Under the pieces are notes generated by a model. It was not told the DNA's origin. It ran no database searches and saw nothing but the letters and a program-made list of their open reading frames with translations. A program made the position numbers and the translations under genes. 64,000 nt of DNA from a virus. Its lineage: Duplodnaviria; Caudoviricetes. This document shows, piece by piece, positions 6,101 through 50,426 of the stretch. Where the stretch lies: positions 1 to 64,000 of the IMG/VR virus record IMGVR_UViG_3300028797_002495; one strand, written 5' to 3'. Each line of letters opens with the position of its first letter. The stretch's first letter is position 1.

Positions 6101-7268
6101 CGAAATTCAATCTCTTGTTGCTTCTTTAGGTTTAGTTGGAAAAGAATTTGATGAGCTTAAAGATAAATCAAACAACTTGGCAAATCAAAAATCCATTGCA
6201 AATATACTTAAAACAGTACGAACTGAATTGTTCAAAAACGGTGCAATGGATAAAGAATATAAAGTTCTTTTAGAGCAATATAGAGAAGAATTACAATCTG
6301 CTTTAGAATTATATAGTCAAGGCAGAGAAAAGGAAGCTAATCTTACAAAAGAAAGACTTCAAGAAATCATTGCTGGAGTAATGGATATTCAAGGTAAAAT
6401 TCAAGAATCCGGCAAAACTGGTTTGACGATGATTAACAAAATAGGTCAAGCCATAAAAACAAATTTTGCTCAATATGTAGCAAGATATTTTAGTTTATAC
6501 GACATTATTCGTTATATAAGAACTTCAGTTGAAGAAGTTAAAAATCTTGATACTGCATTAACAGAGTTAAGAAAAGTATCAAATGAAACAACTGAAAGAT
6601 TACAGGTTTCATTTAAGCAATCTGCCGAAACTGCTAAAGAATTAGGTAATACTCTTAGTTATGTAATTAATATTACTGCTGACTGGTCTAGACTTGGATT
6701 TGCAATAGATGAAGCTGAAGAACTTGCTAGAGTTACTACGTTATTTAAAAACGTAGGTGATAATATGAGTGCTGATGATGCAAGTTCATATATGATTTCT
6801 ACTCTTCAAGGTTTTCAGATTACCGCCGAAAAGAGTGAAGAAATAGTTGATAAGTTTAACGAAGTTGCAAATAATTATGCGATTGATACTCGTGGAATTG
6901 GCGAGGCACTTCAACGTTCGGCTGCATCATTTAACGCAGCAAATACAAGTTTAAGTGGAGCAATTGCTGTTGTTACAACTGCTAATGAAGTAGTACAGAA
7001 TCCAGAAATGGTTGGTACTGCAATGAAAACCTTGTCGGCTAGAATTCGTGGTTCAAAAGTAGAACTTGAAGAGCTTGGAGATGAAGAGGCAAATGTAGTT
7101 GATTTAACATCAAAACTACGTAGCGAAGTAAAAGCTATGACTGGCTTTGATATTATGCTCGATGAAAACACTTATAAATCTATAGATGAAATAATTATAG
7201 GAATAGGTGAACATTGGGATGAATTAACTGATATACAACAAGCGGCTCTTGCTGAAGATCTTGCTGGT
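3195..7268 (+). CDS. Tape measure protein, exon 1 (1358 codons)
   Basis: Long coiled-coil ORF ending in a TP901-type TMP core (LDTALTELRKV...ADWSRLG...VDKFNEVANNYAI...VGTAMKTLSARIRG...LAEDLAG). The ORF-track extension to 7325 is read-through into the intron. Confidence 0.9.
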
Positions 7269-43357: not shown

Positions 43358-44317
43358 CTACATACTCTTTCTTTCTGCAATCTCTGCCATTTTAGCAGCG
43401 TTAGATCTAGTATAACCATGTACTCTTGAATACTGTAGATAACCATTCATTCTATCAATCTTGGTTATCATTGAACTGCCACATATTGGACATACGTCCA
43501 TTTCAAGTTCTTCATGACCACAATCTTCACAATATGCCAATGAAAGATTTACGCCTTCGTAGAAGCCGATTTGCATAGCTCTGCGAACGATTGATTTAAT
43601 TGCTTGAATATTATATCCAAGATGATATCTACAATACTGTATTTTTCCACCATTGAAATAATCCCAAAATCTTCTTTCAGCATCTTGTTTTTGAATGGGA
43701 CTAATGTCTTCTGTTACATGACAATGGAATGAATTACTTACATAAGGACGATCTGATACTTTTTCAACCACTCCATATTTCTTACGGAACTGTTCTACTT
43801 GTGTTCCACATAAACTCTCTGCTGGTGTTCCGTAGATCGCATAGAGTATTTGGTCTTCTTCTTTAATCCTATCAACATAATCATTGATATATTTCATTAC
43901 TTCTAATGGAAACTGTCCGTCCTCTAATATTGATTTTCCATTATATAATTCATTTAATTCATTTAATGCAGTAATTCCAAAACTCATTGTCATAGGTTTA
44001 AGCAATGGCTTGATTTTTTCATCAGCCTTAAGATGACCATTAAGTAATCCACCTTGCATCCATGCCATAGGGTTTGTACTTGCTTTCTTTTCACCTAAAA
44101 AGTCGTATGTTCTCTTATGTAGATTTCTTATCATTTCAAGATAATAATCAAGGACTTTATAGAAATCTTTATTTTCTTGTCTTGATTTTGCAAGAATCAT
44201 TGGTAAATGCAATGATATTACGCCAAGATTGCAACGAGATATAAATATTGGTACATCGTTTTCATCAGCCGGATGCATTCCACCACGTTCAAACCAAGGA
44301 CTTAAACTAGCTCTACA
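43358..44317 (-). CDS. nrdD: Anaerobic ribonucleoside-triphosphate reductase, exon 2
   Basis: CRASL continues the MG|CR active-site motif. CNLGVISL, TPAESL, CEDCG/CPICG Zn site and glycyl-radical loop RMNGYL. Confidence 0.95.
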   Translation of the reverse strand, partial: CRASLSPWFERGGMHPADENDVPIFISRCNLGVISLHLPMILAKSRQENKDFYKVLDYYLEMIRNLHKRTYDFLGEKKASTNPMAWMQGGLLNGHLKADEKIKPLLKPMTMSFGITALNELNELYNGKSILEDGQFPLEVMKYINDYVDRIKEEDQILYAIYGTPAESLCGTQVEQFRKKYGVVEKVSDRPYVSNSFHCHVTEDISPIQKQDAERRFWDYFNGGKIQYCRYHLGYNIQAIKSIVRRAMQIGFYEGVNLSLAYCEDCGHEELEMDVCPICGSSMITKIDRMNGYLQYSRVHGYTRSNAAKMAEIAERKSM

Positions 44318-45132
44318 CAAACCTTATAAATTTCATAAGGTTCAGACTATATCTTCACATATTATTCTGTAACCAAATAATATGTGCTCCGCACTTCCAC
44401 TTGAGGAATTTCACCTCAAATGTACTCTACTCGCTTCTTCATACAAGTTTTTCTCTTATATTATGCTTTCGATAGTCGTTTGACTTAAATGTAACTGAAT
44501 AAATAACCTAAATAATCTTCGTTAAGTTCACCTTTTAATACTCTAGCAATTTTATGTCTATCAAGTTTTAGTTGTTTACCACATTCTCTGATCGATTTAA
44601 AATTAAAGCTTTCTCCATTTATTATATTCACTGCTTTAATTTTGGTATTATTTCTATGTGTACGATTTCCGCTTTTCCAACCGTGTAAAACATTATATGA
44701 ATTTGTACACCATTCTAAATTATCTAACTGATTATTTAATTTATTACTATCTATGTGATTAATATATTTGTATTCATTCGGATTTGGAATGAAACAATGT
44801 GCTAAAATCACATGAACTCTTTGATGATGATTCTTACCAGTTTGATCTCGATATTGAACCTGCATATATCCGTCTGTCCCTTTATGAGGAGTTAATTTCA
44901 AACCGGTTCTTTTACTATATATATTTAAATTATCATCTACTAAAAATCCTTTATATTCTTTCAATACCTTTATCCTCAAAGGTATTTATTCAGTACATCT
45001 TTAGCACAGGATTATCTCTTTTGAGCCTTCCCTGTTAGCCATTCTATTAGTTGCCATTTCCTGCAATTACTTTCGTTAGAATGACACCCTAGATTTCTAG
45101 GTTCACGGAGTTTTACATGAGCTATATTACTA
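44318..45132 (-). mobile_element. Group I intron (815 nt) in nrdD
   Basis: P1 CATGGGT/GCTCATG with U.G. CTAACAGGG...CCTGTGCTAAAG, R GTCAAACGACTATC, S AAGATATAGTCTG, P9 CCTTAT/ATAAGG, terminal G at 44318. Splicing restores SLMG|CRAS. Confidence 0.93.
44485..44979 (-). CDS. Intron-encoded HNH homing endonuclease
   Basis: RVHVILAHCFIPNP...INHIDSNKLNNQLDNLEWCT..YN..H, with a C-terminal NUMOD1-like FKSIRECGK.L helix. Confidence 0.92.
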   Translation of the reverse strand: MRIKVLKEYKGFLVDDNLNIYSKRTGLKLTPHKGTDGYMQVQYRDQTGKNHHQRVHVILAHCFIPNPNEYKYINHIDSNKLNNQLDNLEWCTNSYNVLHGWKSGNRTHRNNTKIKAVNIINGESFNFKSIRECGKQLKLDRHKIARVLKGELNEDYLGYLFSYI

Positions 45133-46395
45133 ACCCATGAGGGAAATAACTTTCCCATATTTTTTATAAATATTAGCTATATATCCCTCTCCTGTAAGAG
45201 ATAAATAATCGGGATACATTGTTTTACTACTACACAAAACGGCTTTATCAAATAAATATTCGTAAGCCTTGCCGTCTCCATGTAGATTATCATCATATAA
45301 GAATGTTAATTTTGGAAAGAGTACTGGTTTCTTAAAACCATCTTTGCCCTGACCATCTCTTCTTACATCTAATGCTATTTCAGAAATAATCAATCCCCAC
45401 TTAGAAGTATTAATCCCAAAAGACATTGCAATAAACGGATAATCACCTCTTGAAGATCCAACTGTATTAAACTTATATTCCCAACCTTGGAATCCTTGTT
45501 CTATATCTCTTCTTACATCTGCTTCAGCATTCATCTTAGCATCTTCTGATGCCAATTCATAAATAGCATTTAATTGAACTTGATCTAAATCAGCCATATT
45601 AATGCCTGCCGCACGTAAAGTTTTTCTTTGTGTTGAAGTTGCCATATTATGATATTTTTTAAAGTATTTCTGATAAGACTTTTCAGCATACGGAGATAAA
45701 ATATCATCAACTTGTGGTATTGTAAAACCACCATACTGCTGGCTGGCAGCACTTAATACAATATCGCCGATTACGTCAAAGGCTGTATCAACAGTCTTGG
45801 GTTCGTTGTACCATATGTTACCCATTTCAAAACCGCCTTTAAGAACTCCACCAACATCAAATAAACAACAGTTGATTCCATCAAGTCTATCTTTCATATC
45901 GTTGATGTAGATATATCCATCTTCAGCAGCTTGTAATTCTTCTTTATTTAAGAAAAACTTTTGGTATAATTCTTTATTAAGCTGACCGTAGATCAAACTT
46001 CTTTGAGAACTTATCATGGCTGAATCAGTGTTGGCATTAGATACATCACCTATATATCTAATTTCTTGGCTCTTTTTATAAACTTCATCTAGCATCTTTA
46101 CAAAAGCGGTTTTATAATCTCTATATTGTTTATATGATTCTCCGACCTTTGGATAAAGTTCAGTAAGAGCATTTTCTACTATGATGTGCATATCTTCGAC
46201 CGGAACTAATTCCTCATCATATTCTTCAACATAGAAGTCTTCTTCAGCTATAATATCTGCAACACGATTGCATATTGCACTATAATCTTCTTCGGTAAGC
46301 TTTTGTAAAGCTCTGTGGGCAGATTTGTTACAAGCATCAATTATCTTTTGTTCGTCATACGGAACAATCACACCATTTTTCTTAATGACTCTCAT
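45133..46395 (-). CDS. nrdD: Anaerobic ribonucleotide reductase, exon 1 (spliced protein about 740 aa)
   Basis: ATP-cone start MRVIKKNG, NANTDS, YINDMKDRL..INCCL, SQQYGGFT, FPKLTF and MYPDYLS. Confidence 0.95.
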
Positions 46396-46412
46396 CTTTA
46401 GTACGCCTTTCT

Positions 46413-46811
46413 TTACTTCCAATAATGTTCTGTTATATAATTAACTGCTTCAAGCATTGAAGGAAGTACTACGTCACAAGCGTCTTTTGCCCAGGGATAA
46501 ACTTCAATTTTACCAAATCCAATAATTGGTTTATTTAAAGCTTGAGCAAATCCAATTTCGTAGTTAGTTCCACAGCTTGAATCAGAAAAATCAAGATTGA
46601 CAAGCAAGATATCACTTTCACGTAGATGATTTAAAAATAATTTTCTACATTCTTTATCACTAGCGGGAAGGAATGATACATAATCATAATGTCTATTAGG
46701 ATTAAATGTATTAAATTCACTTCCTAAAGCGGTACTTACATAATCTCTCCATGATGAACTAATTTCTTGGGATACGTTTCTACACGCTCCACTAAGATAT
46801 ATTTTCCTCAT
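46413..46811 (-). CDS. Nucleoside 2-deoxyribosyltransferase-like protein
   Basis: MRKIYLSGA, FNP, SDILLVNL and GTNYEIGFA..LNKPII motifs. Confidence 0.8.
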   Translation of the reverse strand: MRKIYLSGACRNVSQEISSSWRDYVSTALGSEFNTFNPNRHYDYVSFLPASDKECRKLFLNHLRESDILLVNLDFSDSSCGTNYEIGFAQALNKPIIGFGKIEVYPWAKDACDVVLPSMLEAVNYITEHYWK

Positions 46812-47371: not shown

Positions 47372-48019
47372 CTATTTATAAAAGTGGTGACAATTATCAC
47401 TAAACACATAATCACCGCCACTGAATTTTTCTTGCTTTGTCATAGAGTGGAACCACAAACAATCATCCGCAGCCGTAGCTACACAAAAAGCATATTCTAC
47501 AGCCAGCTTAGTTTCTTCATCAATTTCTGTTTTAGAAACATAAAATTGATTAGGTTGCATGATCACTTCGGTTAAAGTATCGGGGAATCTTTCGTTCTCA
47601 AGTCTTGCTAATACCACCGCTGCCACATGAGTTTTACTTTCAAAGTCAGCCCCGTGACATTCGCTTTCTACAACTCTTTCTAATAAATAAATCTCATCTT
47701 CGGAAAATACATCATCAATCCATTCGATCTCGCCATAGTCTGCAAATTCTTCATTCAAATCCTTATATGCTTTAAACCATTCAAGACTATCCTGAATATC
47801 ATTAATTTCATCAAGCCTTTCAAGATATAGATCTCTAGGATTTATTACTGTTTGAACTTCATAAACTATAGGCTCTATTGAATATTCTTCATAAACAACT
47901 TGTACTGGCTCTTTTTTAGGTGCTTCTTCAGTTAAAGCAATAGTTAAAATAAAAGCCAGTACATAAATAAAAATAACTACACAAATAAATATTAATACGT
48001 CTATAATTTTTCTTTTCAT
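47372..48019 (-). CDS. SleB-like cell wall hydrolase (Hydrolase_2) with N-terminal TM anchor
   Basis: TM at about residues 6-29. LLERVVESE...VAAVVLARL....FPDTLTEVIMQPNQF motif. Confidence 0.8.
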   Translation of the reverse strand: MKRKIIDVLIFICVVIFIYVLAFILTIALTEEAPKKEPVQVVYEEYSIEPIVYEVQTVINPRDLYLERLDEINDIQDSLEWFKAYKDLNEEFADYGEIEWIDDVFSEDEIYLLERVVESECHGADFESKTHVAAVVLARLENERFPDTLTEVIMQPNQFYVSKTEIDEETKLAVEYAFCVATAADDCLWFHSMTKQEKFSGGDYVFSDNCHHFYK

Positions 48020-48105
48020 CTAAGCCTCCAAAACTTTCTGATTAAAAATTCTTTGTTACCTATATAAATCAACCAACACGTTGGGCAATTATATATCCTT
48101 ATCAT
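48016..48105 (-). CDS. Possible 29-aa peptide
   Basis: AAAGGAG RBS, MIRIYNCPTCWLIYIGNKEFLIRKFWRLR, stop overlapping the next ATG. Confidence 0.35.
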   Translation of the reverse strand: MIRIYNCPTCWLIYIGNKEFLIRKFWRLR

Positions 48106-48149
48106 TTCATTAACTCCTTTAATTTAATCAACACTTAATACATTTAAAT

Positions 48150-48212
48150 AGTGTTGGTGGGATTCGAACCCACAGATGCGGCTACATCTCTCACCCTTTT
48201 GTGAGCAACACT
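48150..48212 (-). ncRNA. 63-nt tRNA-like perfect four-way-junction element
   Basis: AGTGTTG | CTCAC-AAAAGG-GTGAG | AGATG-TAGCCG-CATCT | GTGGG-TTCGAAT-CCCAC | CAACACT. Confidence 0.7.
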
Positions 48213-48299
48213 CGTCTTTGAAAGGAGGTTTACGCATGTCACAAGAAACAAAAAAGACATGGAGTAAAGAAATTGAACCTATTTGCAACTAGGTTCTCG

Positions 48300-48371
48300 C
48301 TGGGATAGTTGGATTCGAACCAACGCATAACAGAGTCAAAGTCTGTTGTCTTACCGCTTGACGATATCCCA
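48300..48371 (-). tRNA. tRNA-Gln (TTG), CCA not encoded
   Basis: TGGGATA/TATCCCA acceptor stem, ACAGA-CTTTGAC-TCTGT anticodon arm, GTTGG-TTCGAAT-CCAAC T arm. Confidence 0.95.
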
Positions 48372-48380
48372 GTATTTTTA

Positions 48381-48578
48381 TTATAATTCTTCAATTACTT
48401 TGAAAAAATTATATTCTCTATTAAGTTCTTCATAACGTTTAACCAAAACATCATGTCCGTTTTCTGAGAGCCAATTTTTTCCAAACTTAGCTACTATGTT
48501 GCAAACATGATAATCAGTTAATTCATGTTTAGGAATATTTATTCCTTTCTGATTTGTCCAATAATATTTTTCTTCCAT
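48381..48578 (-). CDS. Hypothetical protein
   Basis: AGGAGG RBS, 65 aa, embedded in the RNA cluster. Confidence 0.65.
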   Translation of the reverse strand: MEEKYYWTNQKGINIPKHELTDYHVCNIVAKFGKNWLSENGHDVLVKRYEELNREYNFFKVIEEL

Positions 48579-48589
48579 TTTAACCTCCT

Positions 48590-48733
48590 AATTTTGGGCA
48601 GTTCCAATGGGGGAGATGCTAAATCTAGTCTCATTACATTCTCACCGCTAGTTGTGAGCAACCCTTCTTGGCATTGTCATTCTCTGTGTGGTGTCCTGCT
48701 CTCTCACACATCATCTGGTCGCTATCCAGCCTC
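48590..48733 (-). ncRNA. Structured spacer RNA 1 (unassigned)
   Basis: GC-richer than flanks. Hairpins CTGG/CCAG, GTGTG/CACAC, CTCAC/GTGAG and GAGA/TCTC. Confidence 0.35.
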
Positions 48734-48817
48734 TGCACTCAGCGAGACTTGAACTCGCACGAGATAATTCTCAGCGGATTTTAAATCCGATTCGTCTGCC
48801 TATTCCGACATGAGTGC
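48734..48817 (-). tRNA. tRNA-Leu (TAA), type II
   Basis: GCACTCA/TGAGTGC acceptor stem, A73, D arm GTCGGAATAGGCAGAC, CGGA-TTTAAAA-TCCG anticodon arm, long variable arm, GCGAG-TTCAAGT-CTCGC T arm. Confidence 0.93.
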
Positions 48818-48820
48818 TTA

Positions 48821-48931
48821 ATCATGGGTAGGGACTCGAACCCTACATGATAGAACCCCTTTCCTAACATCAATCCTCCTTGCGTTCTATCTTTACCAAC
48901 TCTTTAACGTCTACCAATTCGTCACCATGAT
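48821..48931 (-). ncRNA. tRNA mimic A (no anticodon arm)
   Basis: ATCATGG/CCATGAT acceptor stem, D arm ACGAATTGGTAGACGT, internal helix GATAGAAC/GTTCTATC, T arm GTAGGG-TTCGAGT-CCCTAC. Confidence 0.7.
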
Positions 48932-48933
48932 TA

Positions 48934-49066
48934 CTAGAATATTACCGGATATCTAGGAGTTGTGTAGTGGATTACTTCCTTCCACATGGGATCAACTCAC
49001 ATCCCAAGGGACATTCTGCCACCTGCCCTCTAGGGGGAAGTTTATACGAATGCTTCCAAATCGGCT
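48934..49066 (-). ncRNA. Structured spacer RNA 2 (unassigned)
   Basis: GGAAG/CTTCC hairpin, then three consecutive hairpins GGGCA/TGTCC, TGGGAT/ATCCCA and GTGGA/TCCAC. Confidence 0.4.
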
Positions 49067-49180
49067 ATCATGGGTAAGGATTTGCACCTTACATGATGCT
49101 TGTTAGTTTTTCTGTACGTAGGAACTATGTAGCATCCAAAATACCTATACTATTGCGTCTACCTATTCCGCCACCATGAT
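49067..49180 (-). ncRNA. tRNA mimic B (no anticodon arm)
   Basis: ATCATGG/CCATGAT acceptor stem, Leu-like D arm GCGGAATAGGTAGACGC, internal helix GATGCT/AGCATC, T arm GTAAGG-TGCAAAT-CCTTAC. Confidence 0.7.
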
Positions 49181-49305
49181 AATCACTCTCTTAACATACT
49201 GCTTGCTCATTACGTGATTAAATCGAGCACTGTACTCCGTGTATGCTTGGAGTAGGTTTAGCATCACGCTGCATCCCCTCGGTCTTTTACGTGAATTCGA
49301 CTACT
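49181..49305 (-). ncRNA. Structured spacer RNA 3 (unassigned)
   Basis: Hairpins GCA/TGC, TACTCC/GGAGTA and TGCTC/GAGCA. Confidence 0.35.
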
Positions 49306-49394
49306 ATCATAGACAAGGACTCGAACCCTGCACACGATTTCCTACGTGACCACCGACTTGCATCGATGTACCTTGACCATTCAGTTACTATGAT
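49306..49394 (-). ncRNA. tRNA mimic C (type II-like, 6-nt anticodon-position loop)
   Basis: ATCATAG/CTATGAT acceptor stem, CATCGA-TGCAAG-TCGGTG arm, variable arm CACG/CGTG, T arm GCAGGG-TTCGAGT-CCTTGT. Confidence 0.65.
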
Positions 49395-49411
49395 TATTGG
49401 GGGATATATAA

Positions 49412-50323
49412 TCAATGATTTCTCATCATTTGATTTTTTACTTGTTCATTAATTAATTCTGCCATACTCGTATAAGCATTCATTCTAACATTTTGTTGAT
49501 GTTCTTCTTGAATCATATATCTTATCGCAGACTCAATAAATAACGGAGCTTTTTCCCTACCAGACAATTTGAAACGATTATAATTAATGTCAAGATAATC
49601 GTTTATTTCTTCTGGAAGAATCTCAATTTGTTTATATGAAGATTTATCTTTTGCCGTACACATCTTACAAAGATCATTCTTTATATATAATTGAGATTTA
49701 TTATAAGCTTCATAATGATCTCTTGCCCTTCTTGGACAATCTATTCCGCATTGTTCATCTACAAGAAGTTCAAATAAATTATGTGTTGTAAATGACGATA
49801 ACGCTTTTAAATACGGTATGTCTTTATTTTTATATTTAGATACTACTATAGTTGAATATTTATCTAAGTCTTCTGTAGTAATTGTTGCATCATTAATAAT
49901 TGATCTTGCAATTCTAATGTTCGGATATTTATCTCTGATATATTTTTCGAGAATATCAGAACATATTAATATTTCTATATCATATCTATTCGCAAGATCT
50001 AAAAGAGCGTTGCCATATCTATCGTATACATCATTTTCTTCAAGAAGAAAATTTGTGAAAGTAAACTGTATGTCTGACAAGAAACTTTTATAAAATGAAA
50101 TGATCATTTCAAGAGTTTCAATGTCGTATTGTTGCCCCATTATTAAGCGTCCACCATTCCAGATACAATTATTAGGACAGCCATATCCAACAAGTTTAAT
50201 ATCTCCTCTATTAATATTAGTATCAAGTAATGCATGATAAATATAATTTATTCTGTCAAAAATACCTATTTCAAAATATATTGGTACATGGAAATATACC
50301 GTGTTTTTATAATTAAATTCCAT
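49412..50323 (-). CDS. Peptidase U32-like, putative Fe-S protein
   Basis: AGGAG RBS before MEFNY. NNCIWNGGR, SDILEKYIRDKYP, LLVDEQCGIDCPRR..HY, C-terminal Cys and FKLSGR (compare the U32 KIEGR motif). The family assignment is by motif recall. Confidence 0.55.
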   Translation of the reverse strand: MEFNYKNTVYFHVPIYFEIGIFDRINYIYHALLDTNINRGDIKLVGYGCPNNCIWNGGRLIMGQQYDIETLEMIISFYKSFLSDIQFTFTNFLLEENDVYDRYGNALLDLANRYDIEILICSDILEKYIRDKYPNIRIARSIINDATITTEDLDKYSTIVVSKYKNKDIPYLKALSSFTTHNLFELLVDEQCGIDCPRRARDHYEAYNKSQLYIKNDLCKMCTAKDKSSYKQIEILPEEINDYLDINYNRFKLSGREKAPLFIESAIRYMIQEEHQQNVRMNAYTSMAELINEQVKNQMMRNH

Positions 50324-50347
50324 TACAACTCCTATATACGGAAAGGT

Positions 50348-50377
50348 GTGGGGACGAGTGCCTGTTCTCATCCCCAC
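50348..50377 (-). terminator. 11-bp GC-rich hairpin (terminator or attenuator)
   Basis: GTGGGGATGAG-N8-CTCGTCCCCAC. Confidence 0.55.
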
Positions 50378-50426
50378 TGTCAACAGAAAGGAGACGCATT
50401 AAGCATCTATATAAACCATGGAAGGT

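Follow-up and report, generated by a model that had tools for sequence, protein, structure and literature searches.

What kind of RNA is encoded by three tRNA-shaped elements that lie one after the other in a phage tRNA cluster? The question is raised by a stretch of 64,000 nt (positions 1 to 64,000 of the IMG/VR virus record IMGVR_UViG_3300028797_002495; Duplodnaviria, Caudoviricetes), referred to as the window in the following. The source is an 81.8-kb record with an estimated completeness of about 52% and a G+C content of about 32%. In a preliminary description made from the letters of the window alone, elements A, B and C were noted between positions 48821 and 49394 and proposed to form one family of non-decoding tRNA mimics. 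In the present analysis A and B were found to be members of a family of more than 100 phage RNAs, in which an almost invariant shell, apparently derived from tRNA-Leu, carries an arm whose turnover outpaces that of the surrounding genome. Element C is a separate, more tRNA-like class-II relative and not a clear member of the family.

Anatomy of elements A, B and C

The coordinates first given to A, B and C proved to be correct, and the three RNAs are read on the minus strand, in the same sense as the tRNA-Leu(TAA) and tRNA-Gln genes of the cluster. Their 7-bp acceptors, 6-bp T stems and class-II D arms were confirmed likewise. The acceptor is ATCATGG/CCATGAT in A and B and ATCATAG/CTATGAT in C. 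In each element the 6-bp T stem runs without a gap into the 3' acceptor strand, so that 7+6 = 13 pairs are stacked. U8 precedes a D arm of the class-II type, with a stem of 3 bp and GG in its loop. A canonical tRNA differs by its 7/5 partition and by a 5-bp anticodon stem with a 7-nt loop (U33, purine 37), which is absent here. A loose pattern combining acceptor and T arm matched A and C, with a chance expectation of 0.02. All three elements were missed by ARAGORN (with and without introns) and by Rfam 15 (up to E=10).

Element A (48931-48821, minus strand, 111 nt) has its acceptor at 48931-48925 / 48827-48821, a T stem at 48846-48841 / 48833-48828 with a canonical T loop, and U at position 73 (48820). 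Its anticodon arm is absent, and a giant variable arm, made of an 8-bp helix closing a 27-nt loop, lies beside the T arm. Element B (49180-49067, minus strand, 114 nt, A73 at 49066) is a typical family member. It displays the consensus D arm, a 4-bp stub hairpin with a non-anticodon loop at the anticodon position, a two-helix variable arm and the T loop UGCAAAU, which is the form of the family. The insert of 27-30 nt in A and B is located at the position of the variable arm; both lack a 7-nt anticodon loop, as initially described, and the helix closing the long loop abuts the T arm. Comparison of A with B revealed compensatory changes in the D stem (ACG/CGU versus GCG/CGC) and in one pair of the T stem (G-C versus A-U).

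Element C (49394-49306, minus strand, 89 nt, A73 at 49305) folds into a complete cloverleaf with the 7/6 stack of acceptor and T stem, two G-U pairs in the T stem and a canonical T loop. It has U48, a short extra arm of 4 bp and a D arm that diverges from the family. The claim that no usable anticodon is present stands for A and B; C keeps an anticodon stem of 5-6 bp with a loop of 6 nt, or 8 nt if the closing A-U pair opens, which contains CAA/GCA. C is best read as a gene of the tRNA-Leu(CAA) type which has lost one loop nucleotide and gained an extra T-stem pair. A search for homologues with the T-arm pattern of C matched ordinary tRNAs only. Genes comparable to C, with anticodon loops of 6 or 8 nt, were reported by ARAGORN as 'tRNA-???' in phage tRNA clusters of relatives identified via the polymerase gene (L004:7913-7996, L006:3949-4037) and of an unrelated contig (L196:5330-5404 and 6287-6373), and they represent a second kind of irregular tRNA.

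The absence of an anticodon arm in A and B could in principle mean that they are true decoding tRNAs which carry an intron, or which are spliced or edited to restore the arm. A group-I-like intron with an HNH endonuclease does occur in the nrdD gene of this phage. However, the intron mode of ARAGORN returned nothing, no Intron_gpI match was found in 48000-49700 up to E=10, and the insert sits at the variable-arm position, outside the anticodon loop. Removal of the large arm would moreover leave a stub loop of 3-7 nt, or nothing at all in the case of A. Decoding by spliced forms is thus hardly credible, and no existing family or spliced tRNA accounts for A and B. Since the anticodon is missing, the roles initially suggested as decoy for anticodon nucleases or as T-box or RelA ligand are unlikely as well.

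A family of tRNA-Leu-like shells in phages of Bacillota

The exact pattern of D arm plus acceptor found no relatives. Relatives identified via DNA polymerase III alpha (43-69% identity) hold similar long tRNA-like elements in their tRNA clusters, and the T-arm sequence of B matched at least 117 IMG/VR stretches and 59 genome contigs. The latter belong nearly all to Bacillota, namely Weissella, Leuconostoc, Pediococcus, Levilactobacillus, Megasphaera, Heyndrickxia and metagenome-assembled genomes of Lachnospiraceae. Among the T-arm matches listed, 102 of 129 showed a perfect 7-bp acceptor on a 6-bp T stem, and 99 of these had the long spacing. Addition of the genome contigs brought the collection to 146 elements, at least 134 of them distinct, and a Leu-type D arm directly follows the 5' acceptor strand in 131. 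The family was also detected in 13 records of cultured Leuconostoc phages (LN34, phiLNTR2/3, CHA, CHB, P974 and others), where it is not annotated; in KC013027 the element occupies 146-231 of the complementary strand. In a sample of 150 other Bacillota genomes a single carrier was found, which fits sporadic carriage by prophages. The carriers are phages of Firmicutes from dairy, gut and rumen, and among them the cultured Leuconostoc phages allow the element to be deleted.

To our knowledge, tRNA-shaped non-coding RNAs have been known only as scattered cases, such as T4 species 1/2, the vtRNAs of herpesviruses and YrlA. Rfam analysis of eight member loci gave no match, the family is absent from GenBank phage annotation, and in the searchable full-text literature neither a description nor the conserved motifs in print were found. 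The family may be included in a catalogue which lists 10,006 viral RNA candidates without a name (PMC10690425). The earlier suggestion that A and B represent an undescribed non-decoding class is in line with their absence from these sources. Neither ARAGORN nor Rfam detects the family, and the phage genomes in question therefore contain a gene that goes unannotated.

Pairing in the shell is maintained by extensive covariation. In an alignment of 68 sequences, in which pairing of the acceptor was itself a selection criterion, 99% of the cells were paired and covariation reached 0.553, versus 0.116 for shuffled and at most 0.136 for slid partners. A fairer set of 117 model-selected matches from other contigs was 97.2% paired, and 14 of the 16 pairs were changed on both sides. 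Over the alignments covariation ranged from 0.53 to 0.55, versus 0.12-0.13 when shuffled and at most 0.14 when slid. The D stem, which had no part in the selection of members, shows changes from GC to AU and from CG to UA. The sixth pair of the T stem is GC in 109 members and AU in three, and is never broken. The stem covariation first noticed in the window is therefore real between A and B and massive across the family, and it argues for selection and against decay.

The nucleotides of the tRNA tertiary core are kept (U8, A14, A15, G18, G19, U48, U54, C56 and A58). G7-C66, U8, A14, A15 and G19 are essentially invariant and U48, located just before the T stem, was found in 120 of 120 members, indicating that the tRNA core is preserved. 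The T loop reads UGCAAAU, with G55, in 106 of the 120. The anticodon position is usually occupied by a hairpin of 4-5 bp with a loop of 3-5 nt, and with such a stub the RNA cannot decode. The variable arm, hereafter called the cargo, measures about 40-220 nt, is hypervariable and shows modest structure (mean z = -0.95 versus shuffles). Position 74 is mostly U and the CCA end is not encoded. A pair between positions -1 and 73 is possible in 72% of members versus 45% expected, suggesting that many members may form an 8/6 domain. No excess over chance was seen for pairs -2:74 and beyond, nor for the -1:73 pair in true tRNAs at the same loci (68% versus 67%).

Pairing of the 7-bp acceptor is kept, while its sequence is hypervariable across the family. 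The initial grouping of A, B and C by their common ATCATRG acceptor is thus not retained, and the sharing is peculiar to this genome. A shared acceptor was also rejected as a genome-wide rule of the family: acceptor identity amounts to 3.4 of 7 positions within a genome and 3.1 of 7 between genomes, and the identical acceptors of the window are unusual.

Assignment of the three elements to the family

A family model built from other contigs only, with the window excluded, was scanned over the whole 64 kb (model R2). The highest scores were obtained for B (89.8 bits, E 1.7e-19) and A (61.3 bits, E 1.3e-12), followed by tRNA-Leu (45.9 bits) and C (23.6 bits, E 0.002). The family model R1 gave 92.3 bits for B, 64.4 for A, 34 for the tRNA-Leu of the window and 21.2 for C, the latter with filters off. 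The same model reached 28-30 bits on the tRNA-Leu genes of related phages, and 26 and 22 bits on tRNA-Leu and tRNA-Ser of T4, respectively. Both A and B display G7-C66, U8 G9, the 3-bp Leu-type D stem, U48 and the stacked 6-bp T stem of the shell. They also combine a stub or absent anticodon arm with a long variable arm against the T arm, a combination which is not found in C. Only B has the T loop UGCAAAU; the canonical loop of A and C is shared by a minority of family members. The scores and the features of shell and variable arm identify A and B as family members. The proposal of C as a full member had to be given up, because C scores below genuine tRNA-Leu.

Relation to tRNA-Leu, tRNA-Sec and other tRNA-like RNAs

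The closest known relative of the shell is tRNA-Leu, with which it shares the 7-bp acceptor, U8, the 3-bp Leu-type D arm, the A15:U48 pair and the presence of an extra arm adjoining the T arm. The tRNA-Leu genes, which are often located beside members, score 26-46 bits with the family models. The family differs from them by the missing 7-nt anticodon loop, by a T stem of 6 instead of 5 bp, by the prevalence of G55, by a position 73 which is not fixed as A, and by an extra arm of 40-220 nt.

The total of 13 stacked acceptor-T pairs and the long extra arm are also seen in tRNA-Sec, and the analogy made in the preliminary description holds for the number of pairs. It fails on their distribution, which is 8/5 or 9/4 in tRNA-Sec versus 7/6 here, and on the D arm, a 6-bp stem with a 4-nt loop versus the 3-bp stem of the Leu type. 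There is no UCA anticodon, and RF01852 did not match A, B or C. The 13-bp domain of tRNA-Sec is an exception to the 12-bp rule of EF-Tu (PMC5389517). With 12 pairs and a functional anticodon, allo-tRNAs (8/4, 9/3) take part in translation (PMC5389517). Like irregular phage tRNAs, they resemble the family by a non-canonical partition between acceptor and T stem, by their class-II shape and by the occurrence in phage tRNA clusters; the family differs by its 13 pairs and the lack of an anticodon.

The likeness with tRNA-Leu raises the possibility that the RNA accepts leucine outside translation. LeuRS reads neither the anticodon nor the extra arm and would charge the RNA. Once charged or bound by LeuRS, the RNA would divert leucine or LeuRS or feed an aminoacyl-tRNA-dependent transferase. 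The shell of the Leu type keeps A14, A15:U48 and G18G19, and a tRNA-Leu of E. coli devoid of anticodon and extra arms is still leucylated (PMC9976931). EF-Tu could be kept off by the stack of 13 pairs, as it is in tRNA-Sec (PMC5389517). Position 73, however, is A in 81, U in 49, G in 10 and C in 6 elements, so that A73, which is essential for leucylation, is present in 55% of members only, and element A itself has U73. In 106 of 120 members G55 changes the contact G18:U55, which is important for Leu identity (PMC9976931), and no linked transferase gene was seen. Leucylation as the function of these RNAs is improbable.

In phage T4 two small stable RNAs of unknown function, species 1 and 2 (rnaC and rnaD), are encoded inside the tRNA cluster, and rnaC ends in a tRNA-like T arm and a terminal helix. 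They differ from the family in lacking a Leu-type D arm, in belonging to proteobacterial phages and in not being known as a family with hypervariable cargo. No homology to them was detected: with R1 and filters off, rnaC reached 8.9 bits (E 0.33), and rnaD was not matched on its own strand up to E=10. Two further candidates were rejected. A tmRNA was ruled out by a negative ARAGORN tmRNA search and the lack of a G3:U70 pair. A mimic of the YrlA Y RNA type was dismissed on the absence of an Rfam match and on its opposite topology, as here the ends of the RNA form the acceptor stem.

Turnover of the cargo

Tandem arrays of two to five copies with different cargos are common over many loci, and in locus L149 copies stand back to back, 4 nt apart. 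The loci L083 and L149, which are 83% identical over 1.2 kb, contain orthologous arrays of three elements (L083:3559-3926, L149:4148-4557). The three acceptors are identical between them, while all three cargos have been replaced. One piece of cargo has moved between array positions, and the first copy of L083 has an insertion inside the D loop. The core of B without its six outer acceptor pairs is 93% identical to an element of L099 and 86% identical to one of L198. These two loci have otherwise nothing in common with the 64-kb window, and their acceptors differ from that of B. Compensatory changes distinguish the three copies in the arm as well as in the D and T stems. The replacement of cargos in L083/L149 and the recurrence of the B core show that the cargo turns over much faster than the backbone. 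It is plausible that the conserved D-arm and T-arm blocks act as handles for recombination.

Some cargos hold hairpins resembling T arms or what appears to be a whole nested tRNA (L106:174-565, L082:688-837, L114:14136-14293), which suggests recombination among tRNA or tRNA-like genes.

Fragments of other tRNAs or T arms in some cargos, together with cargo fragments that move between array positions, could also be the mark of decaying tRNA-Leu pseudogenes or of selfish recombination debris without function, and the single carrier among the 150 sampled Bacillota genomes would agree with it. Such an origin is difficult to reconcile with at least 134 distinct members showing 97-99% pairing and hundreds of compensatory changes, with an invariant tertiary core, and with the presence of the element in streamlined virulent phages of 28 kb. 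Decay or debris is consequently a very improbable explanation.

Local antisense function of the cargo, as in the C4 RNA, was considered and rejected. The longest complementarity of cargos to their own flanks (4 kb on each side) was 8.72 nt, the same as on foreign flanks (8.62 nt). C4 of P1/P7 is a regulatory phage RNA which is matured by RNase P via a tRNA-like terminal structure and acts on nearby antisense targets. The family differs from it in its fold and has neither local complementarity nor an Rfam match. The search for a common cargo motif gave only weak enrichment of k-mers, and a suspected GUAC motif was not general.

Genomic context and association with a second structured RNA

In temperate siphoviruses the element is flanked by the gene of an ArpU/Alt-type late activator on one side and by HNH, TerS and TerL genes on the other. 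Its place in Leuconostoc phages is the end of the early operon, behind an HNH gene and next to cos. In large phages it belongs to tRNA clusters and frequently adjoins a true tRNA-Leu. Members are co-oriented with their neighbours, often at most 25 nt from the upstream stop or at most 50 nt from the next start.

In the window, a genuine tRNA-Leu(TAA) gene (48817-48734, minus strand) starts 3 nt downstream of A, as identified by ARAGORN and by the Rfam tRNA model (51.3 bits). It is the kind of gene from which the shell of the family derives. Directly after it begins a structured RNA of about 139 nt, designated S3 (48733-48595, minus strand). Homologues of S3 with 74-85% identity were found at eight or more loci, and its motif pattern matched 13 IMG/VR contigs. 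Compensatory changes were observed in 16 of 29 predicted pairs, and no match was found in Rfam 15. S3 is a second conserved family of structured RNAs outside Rfam. It always starts 0-2 nt past a tRNA or a member of the shell family and often ends at the 5' end of a tRNA-Leu(TAA). As S3 is flanked by tRNAs and shell members alike, the latter fill the positional role of true tRNAs, which is the sole indirect evidence that they are handled like tRNAs.

The same observations lend some positional support to a role in cis, in which the element would provide cleavage sites for RNase P and RNase Z that separate mRNA segments, for instance at the early/late boundary beside the packaging genes, or that free small RNAs such as S3, and the excised tRNA-like RNA itself would have no function. 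The short distances to neighbouring genes, the location before HNH/TerS/TerL or at the end of the early operon, and the exchangeability with true tRNAs as flank of S3 would all be expected. For such a purpose, however, any tRNA would do, and the 7/6 stack, the G55 T loop, the giant arms and the tandem copies 4 nt apart in L149 would have no explanation. The spacers between the elements of the window are without structure or conservation. Punctuation of transcripts is for these reasons considered unlikely as the sole function.

Possible function of the shell and the cargo

A constant shell with a hypervariable cargo, the occurrence in arrays and the exchange of cargos led us to favour, tentatively and at somewhat less than an even chance, the reading that A and B are non-decoding scaffolds which are processed like tRNAs, excluded from translation and equipped with an exchangeable effector RNA arm. 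According to this proposal, the element would be transcribed within operons or tRNA arrays, excised by RNase P and RNase Z like a tRNA and provided with CCA, and would accumulate in a stable L shape. Its additional stacked pair and the lack of an anticodon would exclude it from translation. The shell would serve as scaffold for processing and stability, and the variable arm as effector cargo, for example as sponge or aptamer for factors of the host or of competitors in an arms race. Recombination among conserved blocks of the shell would shuffle the cargos between phages. More specifically, the family could be a natural tRNA-scaffold cassette system of Bacillota phages, with a host-processed shell, a hypervariable arm as arms-race effector (e.g. 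against defence proteins) and shell blocks of 20 nt through which cargos are swapped between unrelated phages; this fuller version is possible but doubtful. If the cargo is an effector, the family would represent a new modular route by which phages deploy small RNAs.

Precedents for the use of a tRNA module which is not aminoacylated and which confers processing by RNase P and RNase Z as well as stability are the tRNA-pre-miRNA fusions of murine gammaherpesvirus 68 and engineered tRNA scaffolds or arrays of tRNA and guide RNA. They differ from the family in being of eukaryotic-virus or synthetic origin, and in carrying the cargo outside the tRNA body or in place of the anticodon arm instead of at the variable-arm position.

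Several observations speak against the scaffold proposal. For a mere scaffold, the conservation of the D loop and of the unusual G55 T loop seems tighter than necessary, which hints at the shell itself as the interface. RNase P and RNase Z measure 12 bp, from which the stack of 13 bp deviates. No motif is common to the cargos, no antisense target was found for them within 4 kb on each side, and they exceed shuffled sequences only modestly in structure; the cargos could hence be filler that is tolerated because this single site of the tRNA fold takes insertions. Finally, the acceptors of the orthologous arrays are identical, with flanks at 83%, so the acceptor sequence may matter too.

The main rival reading places the effector in the shell itself. 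The shell, consisting of acceptor, T arm and elbow, would be a decoy of the upper half of a tRNA which titrates a host tRNA-binding protein blind to the anticodon, and the cargo would be filler. Candidate targets are abortive-infection toxins that alter or cut the 3' ends of tRNAs or class-II tRNAs, such as nucleotidyltransferases of the MenT/AbiEii type and toxic small alarmone synthetases, or else RNase P, the CCA-adding enzyme or LeuRS; toxins of this kind act on acceptor ends or on class-II tRNAs. In phages of Lactobacillales, Bacillales, Clostridia and Negativicutes alike, D loop, T loop and U48 are nearly invariant, which would imply a universal host partner. The consistent loss of the anticodon loop fits as well, and arrays could raise the dose. 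The conservation of the elbow and the identity of acceptors between orthologues would be better explained by a decoy than by a scaffold. Against it, no linked defence or counter-defence gene was seen at the examined member loci, the acceptor sequence and position 73 vary widely, and neither the complete replacement of cargos nor the spread of one cargo among unrelated phages is accounted for. The decoy is rather unlikely on balance, if less so than the other rivals; were it correct, the family would point to defences or host enzymes which read the upper half of tRNAs. Under the scaffold proposal as under the decoy, the 7/6 domain is a naturally occurring means to test how strictly RNase P, RNase Z, the CCA-adding enzyme and EF-Tu measure 12 bp.

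Surroundings of the array in the window

Upstream of the array are the gene of DNA polymerase III alpha and two unknown open reading frames (ORFs). The ORF next to the array (49412-50383, minus strand, 323 aa) ends 17 nt before C. It has no family match in PHROG, Pfam (up to E=1) or NCBIfam (up to E=0.1), and no relatives were found in IMG/VR with peptide patterns. Its assignment as a U32-like Fe-S protein was rejected on the absence of a match in Pfam (E=1) and NCBIfam (E=0.1). No promoter-like site was found on the minus strand from this ORF to element C. The spacers S1, between C and B (49181..49305, minus strand), and S2, between B and A (48932..49066, minus strand), have a length of 125-135 nt and a G+C content above the genome level. 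No folding signal (z = -0.29 for S1 and +0.06 for S2), no BLAST match and no homologue among about 200 compared loci were obtained for them. Downstream, the tRNA-Gln gene (48371-48299, minus strand) is followed by a terminator-like hairpin (48275..48296, minus strand), which is the probable end of the transcription unit of the array.

Past this terminator, a mini tRNA-like four-way junction of 63 nt was noticed (48150-48212, minus strand). It consists of a 7-bp terminal helix, two short hairpins and a canonical T arm, with a fold z of -3.4 and a weak match to the tRNA-Sec model (17 bits). On the opposite strand of the stretch that follows tRNA-Gln lies an antisense ORF of about 18 codons with a strong Shine-Dalgarno sequence (48222-48278, plus strand), which may be due to chance. 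At a larger distance, nrdD (43358-46422, minus strand) is divided into two ORFs of 430 and 320 aa separated by about 800 bp. The gap contains an ORF for an I-HmuI-like HNH endonuclease (44485-44979) and a sub-threshold match to a group I intron (44324-44450, 28.6 bits, E 4e-5), and is probably a mobile intron as in nrdD of T4.

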